Notes: a model not told the origin generated them from the sequence alone. A stretch of 54,649 nt of DNA from Gemmatimonadota bacterium (GCA_039590175.1 JBDHFW010000001.1:1-54649); one strand, 5' to 3'; positions 22,891-36,577 are shown, numbered from the stretch's first letter. Numbers and translations are program-made.

Positions 22891-24129
22891 CTAAAGGCCG
22901 AAGCGCTTCGCCACGGCCTCGAGGTCGGGCGAGATGGCCTCCGGACGTTCGACCGGACGGCTGGCGGCGGGAACGTCCTTGAGACCGGTACCGGTGATCA
23001 GGAGGACGATCCGCTCGTCGCGTTCGACCAGGCCTTCCTCCAGAGCCGGGTAGAGGCCGGCTAGCGCCGCCGCGCCGGCGGGCTCTGCGAACACGCCCGT
23101 GTGACGAGCCAGGAAGGGGATGGCGTCGAGGATGTCGTCATCCGACACGGCGACCGCCCCGCCCGCCGATTCCCGGATGCGCTTTAGACAGAGGATCGCG
23201 TTGCGCGGAGTCTGTACCGTCAGGCTGTCCGCGACGCTGGCTGCATCCGGCACCGGCGTAACCGTCTCGGCGCCATGCCTGAAGGCGGTCACGATCCCGG
23301 CCGACCCCTCCGGTTGGACGGCGACCAGTCGAGGCATGCGAGCCAGCAGCCCGGCTCGCACGAGGTCCCCGAACCCCTTGGCGGCACCGGCCAGGATCGC
23401 CCCGTCTCCGGTTGGCACGAAGACGACGTCGGGAGGCTCGGGCGTCATGGCGGCGGCGATCTCGAGCGCGACGGTCTTCTTGCCCTCGATCGTAAACGGG
23501 TTGAGGGCCGTGTTGCGGTTGTACCAGCCGAAGGCGTCGCACGCCTCCAGGCAGAGATCGAAGGCGTCGTCGTAGCTACCCTGCACTCGCACCACGTCCG
23601 CCCCGTAGCAGAGGAGCTGGACCAGCTTGGCCTCCGGCGCGGACGCCGGCACGAAGACCACCGCTCGGACGCCGGCGGAGGCTCCGACGGCGGCCAGCGC
23701 GGCGGCGGCATTGCCGGTGGAGGCCGTCGCGACCGTCTCGTATCCGTATTCCCTGGCCTTGGTGACGACGAGAAGGGAGGCTCGATCCTTCGTGGACCCG
23801 CTCGGATTCCGCGTGTCGTCCTTGATCCAAAGCCGTGGCAGGTCCAGAGCCTCTCGCAGGCCGGGAGCCGGCAGCAGCGGCGTGCCGCCGACGTCCAGGG
23901 GCGGCACCGCGGAAGGATCCGAGAACGGGAGGAAAGCCGCGAGGAAGTCGGTGTCGGAGAGCCGGGCCTTCGGCCACCCTGTCGGCAGCGTGTCCAGCTC
24001 GATCTCGAGCACCCCGCGCGTCGGTCCACCGGGCGCCTGAAGGGCGGCGCACGCCTCGCAGACCAGGAGCGCCGGCTGCTCCGCGTACGCCCGGCCGCAC
24101 TCGCAGCAGCGAAGCCGGAAGCCGCTCAC
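22891..24129 (-). CDS. Threonine-synthase-like fold-type-II PLP enzyme with an N-terminal zinc ribbon (last gene of the operon)
   Basis: CCECG...x12...CEAC ribbon. PLP-lysine context NPSGSTKDRAS. ATASTGNAAAALA. GTG start overlapping the ygeW-like stop (GTGA). Confidence 0.7.
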   Translation of the reverse strand: MSGFRLRCCECGRAYAEQPALLVCEACAALQAPGGPTRGVLEIELDTLPTGWPKARLSDTDFLAAFLPFSDPSAVPPLDVGGTPLLPAPGLREALDLPRLWIKDDTRNPSGSTKDRASLLVVTKAREYGYETVATASTGNAAAALAAVGASAGVRAVVFVPASAPEAKLVQLLCYGADVVRVQGSYDDAFDLCLEACDAFGWYNRNTALNPFTIEGKKTVALEIAAAMTPEPPDVVFVPTGDGAILAGAAKGFGDLVRAGLLARMPRLVAVQPEGSAGIVTAFRHGAETVTPVPDAASVADSLTVQTPRNAILCLKRIRESAGGAVAVSDDDILDAIPFLARHTGVFAEPAGAAALAGLYPALEEGLVERDERIVLLITGTGLKDVPAASRPVERPEAISPDLEAVAKRFGL

Positions 24130-25115
24130 ATCACCAGCGCCATGAGAGCCTTCTGCACGTGAAGCCGGTTCTCGGCCTCGTCGTACACGACCGAGTGGGG
24201 CCCGTCGATCACCTCGTCCGTGACCTCTCGGCCGCGGTCCGCGGGCAGCGGGTGCATGTAGATGAGGTGTCCCTTGCCGAGAGCGACGCGCTCGGCGTCA
24301 CACCGCCAATCGGGATATTTTTCGATCAGGCGAAGCCTCTCCGCCGTATCCCCGGTGTGGACGAGAGGCCCCCAGGACTTCGGGACCACCACGTCCGCAT
24401 CCTCGAACGCCTCTTCGAGCGTGTGCGTGATCCGAAACTGGCCTCCGGCGGCTTCCGCGTTCGCTTTCGCCTGCTCCTCGATCTCCGGCATGAGCCGAAA
24501 CTCGGGCGGGTACGCCAGCGTCACGTCCAGCCCGAAGCGCGGCATCATCAGAACGAGGCTTTGCGGCACGGAGATCGGCCGCACGTAGTTGGGAGCGCTC
24601 GTCCACGCCACGCCGATCTTCAGGCCTCGCGTGTCCGCGAATCGCTCCCGGATCGTCATGTAGTCGGCCAGGATCTGGCAGGGATGGTAGAGGTCGTCCT
24701 GCATGCTGAGGACCGGGATCTCGGCGTGCTCCGAGACTTCCCGGATATAGGCGTTCCCCTCTCCGTGCGTGCAGTGCCGGATGGCGATCCCCTCTCCGTA
24801 CCTCGAGAGGACGTTGGCCGTGTCCTTGGCGTTCTCTCCATGGCTGATCTGCATGCGGTGGGGGGAGAGATAGACGCCGTGTCCGCCCAGCTGCGTGATT
24901 CCGGTCTCAAAGGAGTTCCGCGTTCGAGTCGAGGGGTCGAAGAAGATCATGTACAGCGTCTTGTCAGGGAGCAGAGGTGTCCTTTCGCCCGCCTTCTTGG
25001 CCCGCTTGAGCTGCTCGGCGAGAATGAAGAGCGTGTCAAGCTCCTCGAGCGTCCAGTCCTGCGTCGAGATGAAGTCGCGGCCCTTGAGGCCTGGTGGGAT
25101 GACGATCTCTCTCAC
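24126..25115 (-). CDS. ygeW: YgeW-type carbamoyltransferase (ATCase/OTCase superfamily)
   Basis: STRTRNSFE, QISHGENAKDTANVLS, GEGNAYIREV, HPCQ, AWTSAPNYVRPISVPQ, RFGLDVTLAYPPEF, AFEDADVVVPKSWGP, YPDWRCD and LIYMHPLPAD parallel E. coli YgeW motif by motif. At 329 aa it is shorter than my recollection of YgeW. GTG start in a GTGA overlap with the ygeY stop. Confidence 0.7.
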   Translation of the reverse strand: MREIVIPPGLKGRDFISTQDWTLEELDTLFILAEQLKRAKKAGERTPLLPDKTLYMIFFDPSTRTRNSFETGITQLGGHGVYLSPHRMQISHGENAKDTANVLSRYGEGIAIRHCTHGEGNAYIREVSEHAEIPVLSMQDDLYHPCQILADYMTIRERFADTRGLKIGVAWTSAPNYVRPISVPQSLVLMMPRFGLDVTLAYPPEFRLMPEIEEQAKANAEAAGGQFRITHTLEEAFEDADVVVPKSWGPLVHTGDTAERLRLIEKYPDWRCDAERVALGKGHLIYMHPLPADRGREVTDEVIDGPHSVVYDEAENRLHVQKALMALVM

Positions 25116-26329
25116 GGGGTGAGCTCTTCCTCGAGCGAGGCCAGGAAGGCCGGGATCAGGCTGTAGACGGCGGTCGCCCGCACCAGATCCTCCACCGCGA
25201 CCCACTCTCCGGTGGTGTGGGAGAGCTCTTCGAGACCAGGCGCGAAGCCTACCGTCGGGATGCCGTGCCGGCCCATCGTGGCCACGCCGTTCGTCGAGAA
25301 GGACCAGCGGGAGATGGCCGGAGGCGAGCCCAGCACGGCCTCCACGGCACCGGCCACGCCACGCACGAGCGGATGCCCCTCGGGAAGCACCCAGCTCGGA
25401 AAGAACTTCTCCTGCCGGGCAAGCTCTCCACGCCAACTCACCTCGTCGTACTGAAGAAGCTCCACCTCCGCATCGCCCAGATGGGGAAGGGAGCGCAGCT
25501 CGTCGAGGGCCGCGTCGGCTGACTCGCCGGCGGTGAGTCGGCGATCGATGTTGATGCGCGCGCCCTCCGGCACCGCGTTCAGCGACACGGTGGTGCACTC
25601 GATGTTCGAGACCACGACCGTGCCCTTGCCGAGGAAATCGTCGGAGGGGAGGCGGTCGTTCAGCGCTTCGACGTCGGAGATGATCGGCGCCAGCTTGTAC
25701 AGCGCGTTCACTCCCTCCTCGGGATGGGCCGCGTGCGAGGATCGCCCCTTGGTCGAGATGGTGGCCTCCACACGACCGCGCTGGCCTCGATAGACGCCGA
25801 GATCGGTGGGCTCCCCGATGACAACGACGTCCGGCCGGATGCCTTCCTGCTCGATCAGGTGGAGGAGGCAGTAGCCGTCGCAGTCCTCCTCCATCACCGA
25901 GGCCGTGAGATAGAGCGTGACGTTCTCCGGCAGGCCGCGGGATTGGGCGAGCGCTGCCCCATAGGCCATGCACGCGATCGCCGGCAGCTCATCGACCGCT
26001 CCTCTACCCCAGACCTTTCCCTCTTCCAGCTTCCCCTCAAACGGATCATGCTCCCAGGCGTCACGATCCCCTACGCCGACGCAGTCGATGTGACCGTCCA
26101 TGAGGATCGTGAACGGCCCGTTTCCGATCCTCGCGACCACGTTGCCGAGCCGGTCGAATCCGACCTCGTCGAAGCCTAGCTTCTCGTACTCCCACCGAAC
26201 CCGCTCGCAGCGCTCGCCCTCCCGCCGGCTTTCGGCGGGGATGGCGATCATGTCGCGCAGAAAGCGAACGATCTCCCCCTCGAGGCGCCCCGCGTCCTCC
26301 AGGGCCGCTCGCCCCTCGTTATCCGCCAT
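25112..26329 (-). CDS. ygeY: YgeY-family M20 metallohydrolase
   Basis: FLRDMIAIPAES, DGHIDCVGVG, MEEDCDGYC, VYRGQRGR, RWSFSTNGVATMGRHGIPTVGFAPG: a near-collinear motif match to E. coli YgeY. Confidence 0.8.
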   Translation of the reverse strand: MADNEGRAALEDAGRLEGEIVRFLRDMIAIPAESRREGERCERVRWEYEKLGFDEVGFDRLGNVVARIGNGPFTILMDGHIDCVGVGDRDAWEHDPFEGKLEEGKVWGRGAVDELPAIACMAYGAALAQSRGLPENVTLYLTASVMEEDCDGYCLLHLIEQEGIRPDVVVIGEPTDLGVYRGQRGRVEATISTKGRSSHAAHPEEGVNALYKLAPIISDVEALNDRLPSDDFLGKGTVVVSNIECTTVSLNAVPEGARINIDRRLTAGESADAALDELRSLPHLGDAEVELLQYDEVSWRGELARQEKFFPSWVLPEGHPLVRGVAGAVEAVLGSPPAISRWSFSTNGVATMGRHGIPTVGFAPGLEELSHTTGEWVAVEDLVRATAVYSLIPAFLASLEEELTP

Positions 26330-27786: not shown

Positions 27787-29163
27787 CTAACCCTCTGATA
27801 AACCGAGATATGGAGTGTTCCAGTCCAGGGCGTGAAAACGCTTCCACAGCGGTGGGGCCAGCTCCCGGGCCCGCGCCGTCAACTCCTCGGGATCGAGGGT
27901 GGTGTGGCGGAAGTCTTCCAGCAACACCCGGCCACGCGCCACCGTGTGCCGCACGGGAGCCTCGCTGGAGCCGTAGACCAGGTGCCCGAACAGGTTCTCT
28001 TCGGAGATCGGGGTCGGAGGCGGGGAATCGACCGAGATGACATCGGCCGGCGCCCCTTCCACCAGTTGGCCGAGGAGCGGCTCCGGAAAGAAGCGCCGCG
28101 CCACGGCGGCGTTGTTGGCCAACAGCTCCGGCAGTGCCTCGAAGCCCGAGAACGGATCACCGGTCGCTCCTCGATGCGTCAGGAAGGCGAAGCGCAGAGC
28201 CCGCAGCATCGAGGCGGAGATGCCGTCCGTGCCCAGGCCGATCGTGCAGCCGAGCGCGGCGGTCCGCGGCACGTTGAGGCGGCCGACGCCGTTGTTGGCG
28301 TTGGATTCCGGGTTGTGGATCAGAGTCGCATCAGCTTCCGCCGCCCGCTCGTAATCCGCCTGCTCCAAGTGGATCGCGTGGGCGAGCAAGGCGCGCTCGT
28401 CCAGCAGGCCGGAGCGTCCGAGCCGCTCTATCGGGCCGGCCCCGAACGCAGCAATGGATGCGCGCACATCCACCGGATCTTCGGCGACGTGAATGTGGCA
28501 GCCCGACCCGGGCGGTCGGCGCTCGGCCACCCGGGCCAGCGTCTCATCCCGGAGCGTGAAGCTGGCGTGGAGGCCGACGACGCCGCGGATCCGAGGGTCA
28601 TCGGCTCGATCGGTCAGGAAGCGCAGGTTCTCTTCGATCCCCGCCCTGGCGCCCTCGGAACCGTTGCGATCCGTGACCTCGTAGCAGAGGAGTGCCGAGA
28701 TCCCGGCTCGGTCGACCGCGTCGGTGATCGCGTGGAGGCTTCCGTCGATGCAGGACGGCGAGGCGTGGTGGTCGAACACGGTGGTGCAGCCGTGCCGTAC
28801 GCACTCGGCGGCCGACAGAAGGGCCGAGATCCGCACGGTTTCGGCGTCGAGCGCGCGGTCCAGCCGCCACCAGAGGCGATCCAGCACCTCCGGGAAGCTT
28901 CGCATCGGCACGCCGGGGTCCAGACCTCTTGCCAGGGCCGAATAGAAGTGATGGTGGATGTTGACCAGGCCGGGCAGGATGATCCCGCCGCGACCATCCA
29001 GGTAGTGCGCGTCGGGGAAACGCGCTCTGATTGCCGATTCCTCGCCAGCGGCGGAGATCCGCTCTCCCGTCCAGGCGACGGCGCCGTGCGGCACGACCTC
29101 GGCAGGGGAGCCGCCCGTCACCAACGTGGCGTTACCCAGGATCCAGGTCTCGAGCTCGCTCAT
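27787..29163 (-). CDS. ssnA: SsnA-type aminohydrolase (amidohydrolase superfamily, guanine/cytosine-deaminase-like)
   Basis: LPGLVNIHHHFYSAL (HxH), HVAE, NPESNANNGVG, GLGTDG. 458 aa. The ATG lies in an ATGA overlap with the upstream amidohydrolase stop. Confidence 0.75.
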   Translation of the reverse strand: MSELETWILGNATLVTGGSPAEVVPHGAVAWTGERISAAGEESAIRARFPDAHYLDGRGGIILPGLVNIHHHFYSALARGLDPGVPMRSFPEVLDRLWWRLDRALDAETVRISALLSAAECVRHGCTTVFDHHASPSCIDGSLHAITDAVDRAGISALLCYEVTDRNGSEGARAGIEENLRFLTDRADDPRIRGVVGLHASFTLRDETLARVAERRPPGSGCHIHVAEDPVDVRASIAAFGAGPIERLGRSGLLDERALLAHAIHLEQADYERAAEADATLIHNPESNANNGVGRLNVPRTAALGCTIGLGTDGISASMLRALRFAFLTHRGATGDPFSGFEALPELLANNAAVARRFFPEPLLGQLVEGAPADVISVDSPPPTPISEENLFGHLVYGSSEAPVRHTVARGRVLLEDFRHTTLDPEELTARARELAPPLWKRFHALDWNTPYLGLSEG

Positions 29164-30563
29164 GTTCCGACCTTCGATTCCCGCCTCACGTGCCGCCCGA
29201 GGCCGGGGTCTCCGAACCACTCGCCATCATCGTCCTCCAGACGGTATACGGGCTGCCCTCGCACGAACGCCCGCCGGACCCGACCGGTCAAGTCGTATCC
29301 ATCCAGCGGCGTATACGGGTTCATGTTGTGGAGATTCTCCGCACTCACCCTCCAGGTCTCATCGTCGGCGAGCCCCACGAGATCCGCGTCGAAGCCGGGC
29401 TCGAGCCTCCCCTTCCGGCTCTCGATGCCGAAGAACCTCGCGGGCGCGGACGCGGTGAGCTCCGTGAGCCGCTCGAGCGTGATCCGCCCTCGGCGGACGC
29501 CCTCCGAGTACAGGTAGGGCAGGGAGAGCTCCACGCCCGGCACGCCGCCGTAGTCGGTCCAGATGGAGCCGGTGTGCTTCTCCTCGGGCCACTGGCCGGC
29601 TGCGTGGTCCGTCGCGACGTAATCCAGCTCTCCCGAGGCGAGCCCCTCCCAGAGGCGATCCCGGTCGGCCTCTCCCTTCACGACAGGCGCCGTCTTGAGC
29701 AGGGCGCCCTGCCGGCGGAGATCATCCGCGGTGAACTCCAAAAAGTGCGGGCAGGTCTCCGCAGACATGGGCAGGCCTTCGTCGCGGGCCGCGGTGACGA
29801 TGTCCAGCGCGGCGCCGGTGGCGAGGTGGACGATGTGCACGCGTGCGCCCGTCTCGCGGCAGAGCTCACTCATCGTTGCGACGGCGGATATCTCCGCGGC
29901 CGGCGGCCGAGACTCTGCGTAGTCCAATGGCTCGTTTCGGCCTTCCGCCCGGATGCGGCTCGTGAGCTCGTGCACGATCTCCCGATCTTCGGCGTGCACG
30001 CCGACGGGAACCCCCTGTCGAGCGATCTCGGCGAGCGCCTCGGCGAGCTGAGAGCGCGACAGATCCCGGAAGGTCTCCATGCCGGAGAGCATGTAGACCT
30101 TGATCGAGGCCACGCCCGCCTCGACGATCTCCGCCAGGTTTCGTCTCCACTCCCGATCGGCCATGGCGTTGGCGGAGACGCCGCCCCACAGCATGAAGTC
30201 GACGTGCGCCTTCGGCTGGATCACCGCCAACTTCGTCCGGAGGTTGTCGGCAGAGGTCACCGGGGGGAGGGAGGTGCAGGGCATGTCGACGATGCAGGTG
30301 ACACCACCGGCGGCGGCCGCACGGGTGCCGGTCTCGAAGTCCTCTCGGTGCGTGAACCCCGGGTCGTCGAAATGGACGTGACCGTCGATGACGCCCGGGA
30401 GGACGAGAAGGCCGCCGAGCTCGACGATCTCTTCGTCCGCCTCCGCCGGCATTGGTTCCGGTGCCGCCATCTCCGCGATCCGGCCGTCGATGACGAGGAT
30501 GGAGGCCGCCCGCGTCTCATCTCCGCCCGCCGGCACCCTGAGGTCGGTGAATCGCTTCTTCAC
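29160..30563 (-). CDS. Cyclic amidohydrolase of the allantoinase / hydantoinase / dihydroorotase family (HyuA/AllB-like)
   Basis: LPGVIDGHVHFDDPG, GGVTCIVDMP, SIKVYM (candidate carbamylated Lys), VHAED, VHIVHL, ETCPHFL, LWEGLASGELDYVATDHA. GTG start in a GTGA overlap with the ygfK-like stop. Confidence 0.8.
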   Translation of the reverse strand: MKKRFTDLRVPAGGDETRAASILVIDGRIAEMAAPEPMPAEADEEIVELGGLLVLPGVIDGHVHFDDPGFTHREDFETGTRAAAAGGVTCIVDMPCTSLPPVTSADNLRTKLAVIQPKAHVDFMLWGGVSANAMADREWRRNLAEIVEAGVASIKVYMLSGMETFRDLSRSQLAEALAEIARQGVPVGVHAEDREIVHELTSRIRAEGRNEPLDYAESRPPAAEISAVATMSELCRETGARVHIVHLATGAALDIVTAARDEGLPMSAETCPHFLEFTADDLRRQGALLKTAPVVKGEADRDRLWEGLASGELDYVATDHAAGQWPEEKHTGSIWTDYGGVPGVELSLPYLYSEGVRRGRITLERLTELTASAPARFFGIESRKGRLEPGFDADLVGLADDETWRVSAENLHNMNPYTPLDGYDLTGRVRRAFVRGQPVYRLEDDDGEWFGDPGLGRHVRRESKVGT

Positions 30564-32563
30564 GAGGGAGACGGGTTCACCGGGTTCGGAGTATCGGAGT
30601 GATAGACCGAGGTCCACACCGTCCGCGCTCGTGCTGCGCCCGCGAGGTCGAGCTCGGCGTCGAGGCTCTCGGCCGCGAGCCGTCCGTTCTCGTCGATCTC
30701 CAGCTCGTACTCCGTGCCGCCCAGGCGCGCGTGCAGCACCTCCCCGGCCCGACAGAAGCCGTCCAGCTCCGATTCGTCGAAGGCGGCGCGCGTCAGGAAG
30801 ACGATCTCCTTCTCGACGAAGGGGGCGCCCGATTCGGGACAATAGACCTCACAGTTGGAGCACTCGTTGCACGCTCCCTCGAATACGGCGAGTTGGTGCG
30901 ACTCCCGGATCGCGAAGCCGTCCACCTCGACGGGGTTGGCCTCGTAGGCGAAGATCGCGTCGTTCGGGCAGGCCTGGATGCAGAGGTCGCAGTTGATGCA
31001 GTCGTACAGCGCCAGGACGCTGTCGATCTGGCGTGGCGGCTTCGAGTTGGCCGAGGCGTGGTAACGTGGATCCTCGACCAGGGAAGGGACGATCTCACGC
31101 CCGTTCAATCGGCCGGCGACACGCGTCGCGTGGAGCACGAGCGCGTCGCCGTCGAGGCCGGCGGCCTCCCCGGCTTCACTGAGCGCGGCGGGCAGCTCGT
31201 CCGGCGAGCTCTCGGCGGTACGGCGCAACCGATCGATCTGCCGGTCGCCCTCGAGCTCTCGCTCGCCCGCGGCGCCCGGGAACGTGATTAGGGTGTCGCT
31301 GACCGCCTCTGCCGCGTGGCCTCCCGCGGCGAGAACATACGCCTCGCGCGACGTGACACCGGTCTTCTGCATCTCCCGGGCGAGCGCCTTCAGGTAGCCC
31401 GGCAGACGGCCGAATCCCCCCTGTCTGAGAAGATCGGTGCAGGTCGTGACCGGGACCATCCCGCAGGCCACGGCCGCCGGGAAGTTCTTGACGTCGATGC
31501 CGGCGGAGAAGGAGACCGGGAACTCGAAGCCGAGATCCTCCCGAAACCGCTGCATGAGGTTCATCGAGATCACGTGCAGGGGTGGGCCCGACACGTACAT
31601 GTAGGGATCGGTCTGGGTCGGGAAGAACTCCGGCTCGTTCTCCACGACGAGCGTGTTCGTGAACTTCGCTCCGACGATCGAGCCCTGCCGCTCGGCCACC
31701 GATCGCAGCCGCCTCAGGATCTCGAGGCCGTCGTCGTACTGCAGGTCGACGTCGAAGGCCTCCCGCCGCAGTCTCAGGTGCGTGTAGCCAAGGCGGTCGA
31801 ACAGGATCTCACGTACCGCCTCGAAGCCCAGCAGGGTCGGGTTCAGCTTGACGATCGTGTGAAGGCCGACGTCTTCGAGCAGGTAGCGGCAGATGGACTC
31901 GATCTGATCGGCCGGGCAGCCGTGGAAGGTGGAAAGCGTGACGGTGTCCGAGATCTGCCGGGGGAGGTCGATCTCCGAGAACTCCGCCAGGTCTCCGCTC
32001 AGCTCTGCGCGCAGGAGTTCGAAGCTCTGCGCCGGATCCTTCATCCCCTCGATGAAGCCGGTCACCTTCTCGCTCCGAATACCCTCGAGGTCGTAGCCGA
32101 CGCTGATGTCGAAGACCGTGTCGAGTCCGTGCTCGGAGGGGAGCCGGCCGAAGGCGCGCGTGGTCTTGAGGATCTCGATCAGATACGTGGCCTTGGCGTA
32201 CTCCGTGAGCGACTCTTCGACGAGGAGCTCCTGCGACCACTCGACGTTGTAGCCGACGTTCGGGACGTGAATGCAGGGACGCGGGATCCGGAGCCGGTCG
32301 TTGACCTGCACGGTCTTGATCTCGATGATCCGGCTTCCCGCCAGCCATGAGAGCACGATGTTCTGGGCGAGCTGGGTGTGCGGCCCAGCCGCCGGGCCTA
32401 CCGGCGTGGACGCGCGGTGCCCGAAGTGAAGCGCCGAGAAGTCCAGTTCGTCGCTCGGAACCCACCACTTGCGGACGGGCAGATCGAATATGGAGTCGGC
32501 CGTCTCGACCTCGCGCCGCATCCGGCGCACGAGGTCGGGGAATGGGATCGGCTGCAGCTCCAT
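30560..32563 (-). CDS. ygfK: Truncated YgfK-like protein: DPD/DHODH-like TIM-barrel domain plus 2x[4Fe-4S] ferredoxin domain, without the GltD-like FAD/NAD(P)H module
   Basis: TPVGPAAGPHTQLAQNIVLSWLAGSRIIEIKTVQ and LSTFHGCPADQIESICRYLLEDVGLHTIVKLNPTLLG match the YgfK N-terminus. The C-terminus carries CINCDLCIQACP and CNECSNCEVYCP. No GxGxxG/A fingerprint was seen. The ATG overlaps the Mo-hydroxylase stop (TGATG). Confidence 0.75.
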   Translation of the reverse strand: MELQPIPFPDLVRRMRREVETADSIFDLPVRKWWVPSDELDFSALHFGHRASTPVGPAAGPHTQLAQNIVLSWLAGSRIIEIKTVQVNDRLRIPRPCIHVPNVGYNVEWSQELLVEESLTEYAKATYLIEILKTTRAFGRLPSEHGLDTVFDISVGYDLEGIRSEKVTGFIEGMKDPAQSFELLRAELSGDLAEFSEIDLPRQISDTVTLSTFHGCPADQIESICRYLLEDVGLHTIVKLNPTLLGFEAVREILFDRLGYTHLRLRREAFDVDLQYDDGLEILRRLRSVAERQGSIVGAKFTNTLVVENEPEFFPTQTDPYMYVSGPPLHVISMNLMQRFREDLGFEFPVSFSAGIDVKNFPAAVACGMVPVTTCTDLLRQGGFGRLPGYLKALAREMQKTGVTSREAYVLAAGGHAAEAVSDTLITFPGAAGERELEGDRQIDRLRRTAESSPDELPAALSEAGEAAGLDGDALVLHATRVAGRLNGREIVPSLVEDPRYHASANSKPPRQIDSVLALYDCINCDLCIQACPNDAIFAYEANPVEVDGFAIRESHQLAVFEGACNECSNCEVYCPESGAPFVEKEIVFLTRAAFDESELDGFCRAGEVLHARLGGTEYELEIDENGRLAAESLDAELDLAGAARARTVWTSVYHSDTPNPVNPSPS

Positions 32564-35241
32564 CAGCCGCCTGTCCCTGCTTTTACCCGTGACTTCGGGA
32601 CGGACGGCGCGGCGGCCGGAGCGTCGCTCATGGGTAGATCGAAGCGACGCTTGCCGTCGAAGGCGTGGAGGGCGCCGGCCACCGCCCCCGCCGTCGGCAC
32701 GAGGCCGATCTCGCCCACGCCTTTCGAGCCGTAGCCCCCCACCTCATCGGGGACCTCTATGAGGATGACGTCGATCGGCGGCGTGTCCTTCGCCTTCAGA
32801 ATGCCCAGGTCCCGGAGCAACAACGAATCGGGCCGGCCATCCGTGCACGGGAGATCTTCAGAGAGCGCGTAACCCAGTCCCATGTGCACGGAGCCTTCGA
32901 TCTGGTTGGCGCAGAGCAGGGGATTGATTGCCCGTCCCACGTCATGGGCGGCGACCACGCGCTCCAGCCGTCCGTCCTCATCCAGGATGACCACCTGGGT
33001 CGCGTAGCTGAAGGTCATGTGGGTCACCGGGTCCCCGTTCGCCTCGCCGGGCTTCGTGGTGAAATCGCAGATGTACTCGCCGTGGTACTCCTTCCCGACG
33101 AACTCGTCCAGCGGAGCGCAGGCGAGGTCATCGGCGAGATCTCGTGCCGCGATCTGTCCGGCCGCGGTCAGGAGCGCCGTGGCGCGGGAGGCGGTGGTCA
33201 TCCCGCACAGCACCCTGGGATCGCTCGTCGTTCTCACCGTCATCAGCTCCGGATCAAGACCGGTCTCATGTGCGACGACCTGGCGGAGGATCGTGTATAG
33301 ACCCTGGCCCATCTCCGTGTATCCGGTCAGGACCTCGATCCGCTCGCCCTCCAGAACGCGAAGCAGCAGGCGGCCGCTGTCATCCATCCCGTTGCCGATC
33401 CCGGTGTTCTTGATGCCGCAGCCGATGCCTGCGAAGCGGGCGTTCTTGTAGACGTCTCGCACCACCTCCAGCGTCTGACGGATGCCGCAGCTCTCGGTCA
33501 TCAGCTGGCCGGTGGCGAAGGGGTCTCCGGGTTCGAGGATGTTGCGATCCCTAATGTCGTAGCCGTCGAGCCCGACCCGTTCCGCCAGAAGATCCATGAT
33601 CCCTTCGATCGCGAAGGACGCCTGGTTGGCGCCGAAGCCGCGCATCGCACCGCAGGGTGGATTGTTCGTGTAGACCGTCTTCGCCTCGACGTCGACGTTG
33701 GGCACCCGGTACGGTCCGCAGGAATGCCCGGCCGCGCGCTCCAGCACCTTCATCCCGACCGAGGCGTAGGCGCCCGTGTCGCCGACGATTCTCGCCCGAA
33801 CCGCCGTGAGTCGTCCCTCCGTGTCGGCACCCACCGTGTAGGCGAGCGAGATCGGATGCCTCTTCGGGTGCATGCGGATGGACTGTTCTCGAGTGAGCAC
33901 CGTCCGTACGGGCCGGCCTGTCAGACGAGCGGCCAGGGCGGTCTGGGCCTGGACGGAGAGATCCTCCTTGCCTCCGAACGCCCCGCCGTTGGCGACGAGC
34001 TCGACGTTGACCGCGTCCGGCTCCAGACCGAGCACGGCGGCGATCTGGGCCTGGTCGTCGTGCACGCCCTGACCCTGCGTGTAGACCCTGAACTTGTCTC
34101 CGTCCAGAGGCTCTGCGAGACAGGCCTCCGGCTCGAGGAAGGCGTGCTCGATCCTCTGCGTCGCGAAAGTCTGTTCCACGACGTGAGCCGAGTCGGCCAG
34201 CGCGGCACTTACGTCGCCGCGTGAGAAGGCGCACACCTCCAGGAGGTTGCCGCCCTCGTGGACCCTGGGGGCATCGTCGGCTAGTGCGGCGAACGGATCC
34301 CCCACCGGCGGGAGCACCTCGTACTCGATGGCGGCCTCCAGCGCCTCCGCCGCCTTGCGCGCCCGAAACGGCGTGTCGGCCAGAACGAGAGCCAGAACAT
34401 CTCCGACGCAGCGTGTGATCTCGCCCTCGGCCACGAAGACGGGCCAGTCCGGCCGGATCAGACCCACGTTGCGCTCGCCTGGAACGTCCTCCGCGGTGAC
34501 TACCCGTTCCACGCCGGGGCGCGCCAGCTCCTCCTCCGCGTCGATTTGCAGCACGCGCGCCCGAGGGTGTTGGCTGAGAGCCACCGCTCCATGCAGCATG
34601 CCGTCTCGGACCATGTCTGCAACGTAGGATTTATCGCCCAGGGTGTAGTCCTCGCCTCGAAACCGCGCGCTGCTGCCGCCTACGCCGTCCTGTGCCTGTG
34701 GGGAGGAACGCGAGAGTCCGAACTCCTCTCCGAAGAAGAAGGGTCGTCTGGGCGTTCCATCCGCCAGCTCGCCGCCGCTCTGCCACGCTTCGCCGGCGGT
34801 ACGGATGGCGTCGATGATCCGCTGGAAGCCCGTGCAGCGGCAGAGGTGGCCAGAGATAGCCCGGCTGACAGCCTCCCGGTCATCCGTGCCCTGGTGGTCG
34901 AGGAGGGAGCAGGTTCGAACCGCCAGTCCAGGCGTGCAGTAGCCGCACTGGAGTCCGCCCTCCCGGACGAAGGCCTCGGCTACCAGACGGCGCTGCTCTT
35001 CAGGGATGCCCTCGAGCGTCGTAACGGATTTCCCGTCCACCGTATCGGGCTTCCTCAGACAGGAGAGAACCGCTCGGCCTTCGAGGAGGATGGCGCAACA
35101 GCCGCAGTAGCCCTGAGGCGCACAGCCGTCCTTCGGGGACGTCACGCCGCAAACGTCACGCAGCACCTCGAGGAAGGTCATGCCCTCCTCGTACTCGGCC
35201 ACCATCTCTCGGCCGTTCAACACGAAATTCAGCTGCGGCAT
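32563..35241 (-). CDS. Molybdenum hydroxylase (xanthine-dehydrogenase family) with fused N-terminal 2x[2Fe-2S] domain; first gene of the operon
   Basis: Fe-S motifs CAPQGYCGCC...SC, CGYCTPG and CRCTG. Mo-pterin domain motifs GGAFGGKE, GAMRGFG and GVGEIGLVPTAGAVAGAL. 892 aa from the internal ATG, with GGGGTGGGGAG immediately upstream. Confidence 0.85.
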   Translation of the reverse strand: MPQLNFVLNGREMVAEYEEGMTFLEVLRDVCGVTSPKDGCAPQGYCGCCAILLEGRAVLSCLRKPDTVDGKSVTTLEGIPEEQRRLVAEAFVREGGLQCGYCTPGLAVRTCSLLDHQGTDDREAVSRAISGHLCRCTGFQRIIDAIRTAGEAWQSGGELADGTPRRPFFFGEEFGLSRSSPQAQDGVGGSSARFRGEDYTLGDKSYVADMVRDGMLHGAVALSQHPRARVLQIDAEEELARPGVERVVTAEDVPGERNVGLIRPDWPVFVAEGEITRCVGDVLALVLADTPFRARKAAEALEAAIEYEVLPPVGDPFAALADDAPRVHEGGNLLEVCAFSRGDVSAALADSAHVVEQTFATQRIEHAFLEPEACLAEPLDGDKFRVYTQGQGVHDDQAQIAAVLGLEPDAVNVELVANGGAFGGKEDLSVQAQTALAARLTGRPVRTVLTREQSIRMHPKRHPISLAYTVGADTEGRLTAVRARIVGDTGAYASVGMKVLERAAGHSCGPYRVPNVDVEAKTVYTNNPPCGAMRGFGANQASFAIEGIMDLLAERVGLDGYDIRDRNILEPGDPFATGQLMTESCGIRQTLEVVRDVYKNARFAGIGCGIKNTGIGNGMDDSGRLLLRVLEGERIEVLTGYTEMGQGLYTILRQVVAHETGLDPELMTVRTTSDPRVLCGMTTASRATALLTAAGQIAARDLADDLACAPLDEFVGKEYHGEYICDFTTKPGEANGDPVTHMTFSYATQVVILDEDGRLERVVAAHDVGRAINPLLCANQIEGSVHMGLGYALSEDLPCTDGRPDSLLLRDLGILKAKDTPPIDVILIEVPDEVGGYGSKGVGEIGLVPTAGAVAGALHAFDGKRRFDLPMSDAPAAAPSVPKSRVKAGTGG

Positions 35242-35434
35242 CTCCCCACCCCTTTCGGTGCCGGTCTCGCTCTCCGGCAAAAAATGGGTGCCGGGGCCCT
35301 CTCTTGTCACGTCGGGACGCGTGAGGGCGTCCCCCTGGGACCACGGCCACATTCAGCGCACAGGTAGTGCGACCTCGGCCGAAGGTAGGCTATTGTGCCG
35401 CTCGAATCCCCGCTCATTCCCACGGAGGCATCCG

Positions 35435-36577
35435 ATGTCCGGGCTTCACAAACTGCCGGTTTCGTTGGTCATGGCCCTTTCAGCTCTTGCCATGACGGCG
35501 TCCCTTCTCTCCGCCCAGACGTCTCAGGGGACCGGGCAGGATGGGCAAGGGGACGCGACCGCCACTGGGGGTAGGCGCGTCCACGAGGTCGGTTCGACAG
35601 CGCCGGCCGACTCGTCCGAGGCCACCGGCGAAGATGCCGACAGCGCGCCAGAACAGGAGATCGTTCAAGACCGGAAGCTACCGATTCTGGACGGGCACCG
35701 GTTCATCCCGACCTCCACCGTGCCGGATCCCTTCATCACCACCTATCTGCGCAGCAACACCGGCTTCGGGTTTCTGCTGGACGCCAACATCCCGGTCCTG
35801 ACGCAGGCGGATACGGTCGCGGTCCTGCAGGGCGACATCGCCTTCGCCGTGCTGGGCTTCGAGTACCAGCAGGCGATCGTGGACTTCCTCGCCCTGCGGA
35901 TCGGCTTCGGGGGCGCGATACGAACCGGAACGAACGGGGAGACGCTGATCGCCGAGGGGCTGAACGCCAGCTACTCGTTCGGAGTCGGCGTGACGGGCCG
36001 CGTCTTTCACACGGAGGATTTCCTCCTCTCCGTCGCCGCGGACTACGAGAGCAACAAGATCATCGGGGTGGACCCGTTCGGTTTCGCGCAGCGCGTCGCG
36101 GAGGAGTGCGGGGGTTTGCCGGAGGAGGACGTTGCCCAATGCATCCTGGATACGGATGATACGCTCCTTCTATCCGGCAGGGTCAGTGCGATCACAGGCG
36201 GAGCGCGCGCCGCTTGGAGCCCGATCGAATGGTTCGGATTGCGGGGCAGGGTCGAGCTCGGTGGGGGCGACGTGTCGGATGTGGAGTCGGACCTCGGCGC
36301 ATTCATCCTCAATCTGGGCGTGCTGGCGGACTTCGACCTTCTCGAGGTGACGCCCGTGCCGCTGGGGTTCATGCTGGGCTTCGACGGACAGATCTTCGGC
36401 GGCCGTGGTTCTGACCTCGCCGAGGGTGCCAGGCGGATCAACGCCGGGCTCTTCTACACGGGCCGAAAGGAGTTCAGCGTCGGCGTGGAGGGAATCTTCG
36501 GCAAGGTCGCGCTCTCACAATCGGACGAGAGCGTCGACAGCATCACCATCAACCTTCGTCTCCGCTATTTCTTCTAA
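35435..36577 (+). CDS. Outer-membrane beta-barrel protein (hypothetical)
   Basis: GGAGG lies 6 nt upstream of the ATG. Signal peptide ...MTASLLSAQ, a low-complexity linker, then amphipathic strands. The C-terminus ...NLRLRYFF ends in Phe. Confidence 0.6.
   Translation: MSGLHKLPVSLVMALSALAMTASLLSAQTSQGTGQDGQGDATATGGRRVHEVGSTAPADSSEATGEDADSAPEQEIVQDRKLPILDGHRFIPTSTVPDPFITTYLRSNTGFGFLLDANIPVLTQADTVAVLQGDIAFAVLGFEYQQAIVDFLALRIGFGGAIRTGTNGETLIAEGLNASYSFGVGVTGRVFHTEDFLLSVAADYESNKIIGVDPFGFAQRVAEECGGLPEEDVAQCILDTDDTLLLSGRVSAITGGARAAWSPIEWFGLRGRVELGGGDVSDVESDLGAFILNLGVLADFDLLEVTPVPLGFMLGFDGQIFGGRGSDLAEGARRINAGLFYTGRKEFSVGVEGIFGKVALSQSDESVDSITINLRLRYFF

Follow-up and report, generated by a model that had tools for sequence, protein, structure and literature searches.

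A short YgfK without the FAD/NAD(P)H module in a 2,8-dioxopurine-type operon of a Gemmatimonadota bacterium

Related systems and the short YgfK

In the reductive uric acid pathway, urate is reduced to 2,8-dioxopurine by XdhD in Escherichia coli or by XdhAC in Clostridium sporogenes (10.1101/2025.05.19.654654; 10.1101/2025.04.24.650524). 2,8-Dioxopurine is then reduced by YgfK with NAD(P)H (10.1101/2025.05.19.654654, also PMC12507026; 10.1101/2025.04.24.650524). Both redox steps from urate consume electrons, four in total (10.1101/2025.05.19.654654; 10.1101/2025.04.24.650524). The rings are opened by SsnA and HyuA, and YgeW, YgeY, and YgeX complete the breakdown (10.1101/2025.05.19.654654, also PMC12507026; 10.1101/2025.04.24.650524). 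A stretch of 54,649 nucleotides from a Gemmatimonadota bacterium (GCA_039590175.1 JBDHFW010000001.1:1-54649), analysed here at its full length and called the window, carries an operon with the gene set of this pathway as described in 2025. Its YgfK is a 667-residue protein (short YgfK) that lacks the FAD/NAD(P)H module. Short YgfK is probably a functional family member of short architecture that receives electrons through its [4Fe-4S] clusters from another protein, and the likeliest donor is a ferredoxin-type carrier.

E. coli YgfK (DOPOR, NADPH:2,8-dioxopurine oxidoreductase) has been shown to be a 2,8-dioxopurine reductase, and selenate is not needed. Short YgfK resembles it in having a homologous barrel (40% identity over ~390 aa), a 2x[4Fe-4S] domain, and a tail, and SsnA, HyuA, YgeY, a carbamoyltransferase, and a molybdenum (Mo) hydroxylase are neighbours common to both. 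Unlike the E. coli protein, the short form lacks ~500 residues (Fer4_20 plus FAD/NAD(P)H domains) and thereby two Fe-S clusters, FAD, and the NADPH site. It also falls in its own clade, reaches half of the family cut-off, and is encoded directly after the Mo enzyme. The absent module predicts that short YgfK would not depend on NADPH.

Clostridial PydAc is a dihydropyrimidine dehydrogenase (DPD) that lost its FAD domain and runs on reduced ferredoxin (PMC7332683). Ferredoxin has also been proposed as the donor for UacX of Clostridioides difficile, which stands in for YgfK at the same pathway step, and for the XdhD of that species (PMC12507026). Like short YgfK, PydAc and UacX combine a flavin barrel with Fe-S clusters, lack an FAD/NAD(P)H domain, and belong to a reductive nucleobase-degradation cluster. 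They are of the PF01180 DHO_dh/DPD lineage, whereas short YgfK is of the YgfK lineage and has no detectable sequence relation to them. They also occur in clostridial strict anaerobes, whereas short YgfK occurs in Gemmatimonadota and Acidobacteriota, with aerobic oxidases encoded in the window's genome. Judged by sequence and predicted fold, short YgfK appears to be the YgfK-lineage counterpart of PydAc and UacX.

Pig DPD (PDB 1H7W, 7M32) and E. coli PreA/PreT share with short YgfK a barrel followed by a 2x[4Fe-4S] domain (DPD domains IV-V; PreA). Pig DPD differs in having ~15% identity to short YgfK, and domain order differs between DPD and long YgfK, in which the barrel comes first. The preT and preA genes are adjacent; in contrast to E. 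coli preT-preA, short YgfK has no GltD-like gene nearby. 4-Hydroxybenzoyl-CoA reductase is a Mo hydroxylase of the xanthine dehydrogenase (XDH) family that works reductively and removes a hydroxyl group, with low-potential ferredoxin electrons arriving via an extra [4Fe-4S] cluster in its FAD subunit. At the present locus, in contrast, the [4Fe-4S] pair is carried by the enzyme that follows in the pathway, and any wiring between the two enzymes would be putative.

Domain architecture, predicted fold, and spread

An earlier note on this DNA, made from the sequence alone, had described a 667-aa open reading frame (ORF) at 30560-32563 with a YgfK-like N-terminus, and this is confirmed (Table 1). 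By BLASTP, residues 3-394 align with residues 5-405 of E. coli K-12 YgfK, whose reference sequence was taken from the annotated record (40% identity, E 7e-86), and residues 525-629 align with 905-1002 (33% identity, E 4e-14). In NCBIfam, TIGR03315 (Se_ygfK, "putative selenate reductase subunit YgfK") covers residues 3-401, equal to model positions 4-399 of 1012 (E 1.5e-127), and the whole-protein score of 426.6 bits is about half of the 835.3 equivalog cut-off. E. coli YgfK 406-904 holds Fer4_20 (453-532) and Pyr_redox_2 (552-839) according to Pfam and represents a GltD-like module with two Fe-S clusters, FAD, and an NAD(P)H site. This region had no aligned counterpart in short YgfK by BLASTP; ~110 helical residues are present instead, and this linker contains conserved stretches within the short-form family.

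Pfam matches in short YgfK at E<=0.01 were Fer4 families only (Fer4_7, Fer4; residues 519-578), with no Rossmann domain and no DHO_dh (PF01180). The regular expression G.G..[GA] had no match in the 667-aa protein, in agreement with the dinucleotide fingerprint that the earlier note could not find. Pfam, the E. coli YgfK alignment, and the structure model likewise bear out its view that the NAD(P)H/FAD module is missing while the barrel and ferredoxin domains are kept; no Rossmann or GltD-like domain was found by Pfam, motif expression, or structure model. The two cysteine motifs have the form C-x2-C-x2-C-x3-C-P and begin at residues 522 and 565 (nt 30965-31000 and 30836-30871). Both had been placed to within a few bases, but the protein does not end with them as had been stated, because ~90 conserved residues follow the second motif and form a beta-rich tail common to E. 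coli YgfK.

Table 1. Coordinates of the short-form ygfK gene, the regions of its product, and the other genes of the operon in the window
Feature	Position	Strand	Remarks
Short-form YgfK coding sequence	30560..32563	(-)	667 aa + stop; ATG 32563-32561, TGA 30562-30560
N-terminal YgfK-type barrel, residues 1-400	31364..32563	(-)	Presumed FMN and substrate site; no Pfam match
Helical linker, residues 401-510	31034..31363	(-)	Found where long YgfK has its GltD-like FAD/NAD(P)H module
2x[4Fe-4S] ferredoxin domain, residues 511-580	30824..31033	(-)	Pfam Fer4_7/Fer4; E. coli YgfK alignment from 905 on
Beta-rich C-terminal tail, residues 581-667	30563..30823	(-)	Aligned as far as 629, matching E. coli YgfK as far as 1002
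Fused 2x[2Fe-2S]-molybdopterin hydroxylase without FAD domain	32563..35241	(-)	Pfam Fer2_2, Ald_Xan_dh_C, MoCoBD_1/2
HyuA/allantoinase-type cyclic amidohydrolase	29160..30563	(-)	TIGR03178 397.7 bits; Pfam Amidohydro_1; GTG start
SsnA aminohydrolase	27787..29220	(-)	NF005540 448.5 bits, above 444 cut-off
485-aa PALP-fold pyridoxal phosphate (PLP) enzyme, in the YgeX slot of E. coli	26319..27776	(-)	Pfam PALP; weak cysK-type matches
YgeY M20 hydrolase	25112..26329	(-)	NF009555 455.8 bits, above 321 cut-off
Carbamoyltransferase (OTCase/YgeW-like)	24126..25166	(-)	Pfam OTCace_N, OTCace; OTC/YgeW-type NCBIfam matches below cut-offs
Threonine-synthase-like PLP enzyme, last gene of the operon	22891..24129	(-)	Pfam PALP 258 bits; NF006050 282 bits, below cut-off

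An AlphaFold2 model of short YgfK was built from 81 homologues and had a mean local confidence (pLDDT) of 87.1 and a global score (pTM) of 0.91. In this model, strands and helices alternate over residues 1-400 (pLDDT mostly >90), helices span 383-495 (most blocks pLDDT 91-97), and residues 537-632 are beta-rich, with strands at 586-632 and a helix at 640-654. Segment 401-495 is made of well-predicted helices and is neither a disordered spacer nor a Rossmann fold. In a Foldseek comparison against the PDB, the top match was pig DPD (E 2e-10, probability 1.00, ~600 aligned columns), followed by dihydroorotate dehydrogenases (DHODH; E ~3e-7, target-normalised TM-score 0.56-0.70). No sequence link of short YgfK to DPD, PreA, or DHODH was found by Pfam at E<=0.01 or by phmmer against the PDB, and a 19-sequence N-domain profile matched nothing relevant in the PDB at E<=10. 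A sequence-level link to these enzymes was rejected, as fold comparison alone connects them. The N-domain thus appears to be DPD-like by predicted fold and YgfK by descent. The DPD-like TIM barrel proposed in the earlier note holds at the fold level, with pig DPD as best match and no match at the sequence level, and the N-domain was not closer to PreA/PyrD than to YgfK (no PF01180 match, and the E. coli YgfK identity given above).

The eight cluster cysteines are invariant across the 81 homologues. Many barrel residues are invariant in the same sequences and many of these are common to E. coli YgfK; the N-domain is the most conserved part, with ~100 invariant positions shared with the E. coli enzyme. 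We infer FMN binding from the fold and from this conservation; which compound is reduced, which way the electrons flow, and what donates them are inferences as well.

The short form is widespread, which answers a question raised with the original description. A word-indexed search gave 7982 of 8000 scored candidates at E<=1e-3. The 120 listed matches were nearly all 600-760 aa, with few shorter partials, had Fer4 families as sole Pfam domains, and among their named sources were Gemmatimonadota, Acidobacteriota, and Thermoanaerobaculia. When 50%-identity representatives were searched exhaustively with HMMER, 505 clusters reached E<=1e-30, and architecture classes were assigned to the query and 150 listed clusters. 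Of these 151 closest clusters, 81 had N-domain plus ferredoxin, 60 had N-domain, GltD module, and ferredoxin, and 10 were partial. In a scan of species-representative genomes, a relative was encoded at 460 loci. The short form was also seen in Calditrichota. Among 401 genomes sampled from the phylum of the window, 24 have the gene, and the full-length matches there are continuous short forms, none of which suggests an inserted module. Database labels vary between "4Fe-4S binding protein", "glutamate synthase", and "putative selenate reductase".

The maximum-likelihood N-domain tree has a split with SH-aLRT support of 100 that leaves 59 of the 66 short forms on one side, and the other seven lie inside groups of long forms; at least seven changes between short and long labels are required by the starred branches. 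The short form thus falls mostly in one strongly supported clade within the YgfK family. Some proteins of 840-940 aa (P0199, P0227, P0240, and similar) keep the Fer4_20 two-cluster domain and lack a complete Pyr_redox_2 module; with these intermediates, the family shows a graded series of architectures between long and short forms. Another protein, P0159 (1046 aa), is a short-form YgfK with a C-terminal DHDPS-family (dihydrodipicolinate synthase-like) domain fused to it. Short YgfK is not a broken gene, because its family is widespread, falls mostly in one strongly supported clade, and has a conserved operon. A pseudogene or assembly artefact was rejected on conservation and clade structure.

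Electron supply and competing explanations

Because the FAD/NAD(P)H module is missing, direct electron supply from NAD(P)H would be impossible. Another protein would hand electrons to the outer [4Fe-4S] cluster of short YgfK, from which they would pass through the inner [4Fe-4S] cluster to the flavin, and 2,8-dioxopurine would be reduced at the DPD-like barrel; SsnA would then open the reduced ring. The most likely donor would be a low-potential soluble carrier of the ferredoxin type, which is favoured because PydAc is the best-supported precedent (PMC7332683). A further precedent is C. sporogenes XdhAC, also a fused FeS-MoCo enzyme, which was shown to act as a urate 6-dehydroxylase and to make no use of NAD(P)H (10.1101/2025.04.24.650524). 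The ferredoxin-type carrier may also serve the FAD-less Mo hydroxylase just upstream. The genome has four 2-oxoacid:ferredoxin oxidoreductase (POR)-type genes and can therefore make reduced ferredoxin. The earlier note had electrons entering through the Fe-S clusters in place of a built-in pyridine-nucleotide site, and this part stands. Its proposal that hydroxylation feeds the reduction does not hold for urate, because the XdhD/XdhAC and YgfK steps both consume electrons.

Gene neighbourhoods were compared with 17 query proteins against 82 loci whose flanks extended up to 10 kb in either direction (80 best matches and two from an exact-protein look-up, thus weighted towards relatives of the query). 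Of the 54 informative loci, those whose upstream sequence extends for 3 kb or more, 47 (87%) have the Mo gene immediately upstream of short YgfK. Many of the 47 share a 1-nt overlap, and others have gaps of 7-130 nt. The adjacent Mo gene is missing in seven loci, and in five of five searched genomes without adjacency, a Mo orthologue with 72-74% identity is encoded on another contig. In the window, the upstream TGA overlaps the short-YgfK ATG as TGATG at 32563, and the short-YgfK stop overlaps the GTG start of the next, HyuA-type gene as GTGA. The start/stop coupling to the Mo hydroxylase described earlier is therefore real, but it is not particular to that junction, because overlaps occur at both short-YgfK junctions read. 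Adjacency and coupling are weaker evidence for a complex than had been assumed earlier, because any two consecutive operon genes would show them.

Some observations weigh against a ferredoxin-type donor. No ferredoxin gene is conserved in the neighbourhoods; when the unassigned ORFs of 70 aa or longer from the 82 loci were clustered, no ferredoxin, flavodoxin, or electron-transfer flavoprotein recurred as a neighbour, and small ferredoxins would fall below 70 aa. With five haem-copper oxidase genes in the same genome, a donor of strictly low potential and anaerobic type cannot be taken for granted; these genes indicate that the pathway is not confined to strict anaerobes. Finally, the 87% adjacency and the retention of the Mo gene elsewhere agree just as well with a direct partnership with the Mo enzyme. 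A CDA-fold (guanine-deaminase-like) deaminase, e.g., L074:3055-3813 (-), was the only additional neighbour that recurred (14 loci), which fits purine feeding into the pathway.

In the model that follows from the earlier note, the Mo hydroxylase and short YgfK would form one complex, with 2x[2Fe-2S] wired to 2x[4Fe-4S], so that purine hydroxylation drives ring reduction and an external donor is not needed. Besides the frequent adjacency, the 1-nt overlaps, and the orthologues kept elsewhere, this arrangement is favoured by the lack of a flavin/NAD(P)H entry in both proteins and by the reversibility of C. sporogenes XdhAC with viologen (10.1101/2025.04.24.650524). By our reckoning, hypoxanthine to urate would give four electrons and urate to dihydro-2,8-dioxopurine would take four, so the loop could close on paper for hypoxanthine, not for urate, and would be half-balanced for xanthine. 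However, both enzymes consume electrons in the characterised pathway (10.1101/2025.05.19.654654), neighbouring genes are expected anyway for consecutive pathway enzymes, and the overlaps at both junctions give no sign of a specific complex. The seven loci without an adjacent Mo gene also argue against such a complex, as does another Gemmatimonadota family in which short YgfK (43% identity) clusters with a three-subunit FAD-containing XDH and ygeY lies between them. A lipoprotein-like ORF is inserted between the two genes in seven loci, 13 of the 32 loci flanked by 8 kb or more in both directions have the FAD subunit gene of a separate XDH, and no natural fusion was seen. We regard the complex as unlikely. 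Its most far-reaching form, a self-contained Mo/[2Fe-2S]x2/[4Fe-4S]x2/FMN wire that would carry electrons between hydroxylation or dehydroxylation of purines at Mo and ring reduction at the flavin, and by which purines at the hypoxanthine level would be dearomatised without external reductant, is slightly less likely again; if true, it would let oxygen-respiring bacteria run the "anaerobic" 2,8-dioxopurine pathway.

It is more doubtful still that short YgfK is half of a split DPD-like enzyme, onto which a GltD/PreT-like protein encoded elsewhere would dock and restore NAD(P)H dependence. The genome has three GltD-like genes on contigs other than the window, one of them a GltD module followed by a 2x[4Fe-4S] domain. 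The conserved, confidently folded helical linker could be a docking surface, and the intermediates with Fer4_20 and an incomplete flavin module show that the module can be taken apart. Against this, tblastn with the E. coli YgfK module and YgfT found a GltD-like gene within 10 kb in none of the 82 loci even at E<=10, whereas the same queries matched the genome's own three GltD-like genes at E<=1e-42; a separate gltD-like gene is thus not conserved beside short-form ygfK homologues, the situation that the earlier note had held to be damaging to its proposal. Two of the three GltD-like genes are fused to or beside POR parts, pointing to another job. Least probable is a non-catalytic barrel, with short YgfK serving merely as an Fe-S electron-transfer subunit of the Mo hydroxylase while another enzyme reduces the ring. 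Such a role would suit an annotation solely as 4Fe-4S binding protein and an N-domain without a Pfam family. However, the N-domain is more conserved than the rest of the protein and has its ~100 invariant positions in common with the catalytically active E. coli enzyme, Pfam and NCBIfam found no alternative reductase encoded within the operon, and SsnA, whose substrate is the reduced ring, is retained.

Some further observations concern these partners. The two GltD-like fusions of the genome (L001, G000:C4; L002, G000:C47) are unusual; they consist of POR-gamma, GltD module, and Fer4 (764 aa) and of GltD module and 2x[4Fe-4S], respectively, and both adjoin POR alpha genes. At L016, L019, L025, L028, L029, L031, L033-L035, L040, L045, and L074, a three-subunit XDH (Mo, Fe-S, FAD) is directly upstream, with its FAD-subunit gene immediately next to that of the fused Mo hydroxylase, an arrangement reminiscent of E. 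coli ygfM-xdhD. The FAD subunit of this upstream XDH may act for both Mo enzymes. Elsewhere in the window's genome there are five XDH FAD subunits of this kind, and the operon has none. In L024, L026, L029, L031, L034, L035, and L055, a ~480-nt gap separates the Mo gene from short YgfK. The ORF of ~150 aa within this gap carries a lipoprotein-like signal (...GCGDDPLGPE...), lacks any Fe-S motif, and was rejected as a candidate. Long open frames at G023 and G373 were not fusions, and a natural fusion of Mo enzyme and YgfK was rejected.

The 2,8-dioxopurine pathway probably reaches far beyond the anaerobes of the gut, and a different electron source would supply it in those other bacteria. It was worked out in gut bacteria with NADPH-dependent YgfK, and a similarly diverse YgfK branch without NAD(P)H input is common in Gemmatimonadota and Acidobacteriota of soils and sediments. 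Two pathway papers, a review, and the other matches of a literature search made no mention of short YgfK, and the same 2,8-dioxopurine pathway literature did not mention Gemmatimonadota or Acidobacteriota. Homology surveys requiring 80% coverage of long YgfK (10.1101/2025.04.24.650524) or IPR017701 membership (10.1101/2025.05.19.654654) probably miss the short form, because the coverage and score measured here are low. Environmental metagenome studies count YgfK as a marker of "selenium cycling" (PMC11772915; 10.1101/2025.11.29.691269), and such counts may partly reflect purine catabolism. The question of which donor serves the FAD-less Mo enzyme, raised already by C. sporogenes XdhAC, becomes testable here, where both redox enzymes lack a nucleotide site.

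Operon and neighbouring genes

The window, with a G+C content of 66%, is a single contig from a metagenome-assembled genome of 3.43 Mb that comprises 308 contigs and is 83% complete. In the scan of species-representative genomes, the closest relatives were Gemmatimonadales metagenome-assembled genomes. Eight genes lie head to tail on the minus strand, with the Mo hydroxylase first and the ThrC-like PLP enzyme last. The order Mo hydroxylase, short YgfK, (HyuA), SsnA, PLP, YgeY, OTC, PLP recurs across L008-L087, and this conserved order was found in both Gemmatimonadota and Acidobacteriota.

The open frame of the Mo hydroxylase extends to 35352, and its likely start is the ATG at 35241; the family match starts at residue 42 of the long ORF. 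The protein scores 873 bits against TIGR03311 (Se_dep_XDH, "selenium-dependent xanthine dehydrogenase"), above the 830 cut-off, and has only 25% identity to E. coli XdhD. The true start of the carbamoyltransferase is probably downstream of 25166. Two PALP-fold enzymes, cysK-like (485 aa) and ThrC-like (412 aa), stand in the place of E. coli YgeX, and both keep their positions in most related loci.

The YqeB maturation family was not found in the 83%-complete genome. A selD match in the same genome (G000:C279:1531-2448 (-), 352 bits, above cut-off) contains a single in-frame TGA, the pattern expected of a SelD with selenocysteine. A divergent ORF at 35180-36577 (+), with a likely start near 35432, had no Pfam or NCBIfam match. 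A signal-peptide-like stretch begins at its Met85, its C-terminal ...RYFF resembles that of outer-membrane beta-barrel proteins, and a homologue is present at the equivalent position in at least four related loci.

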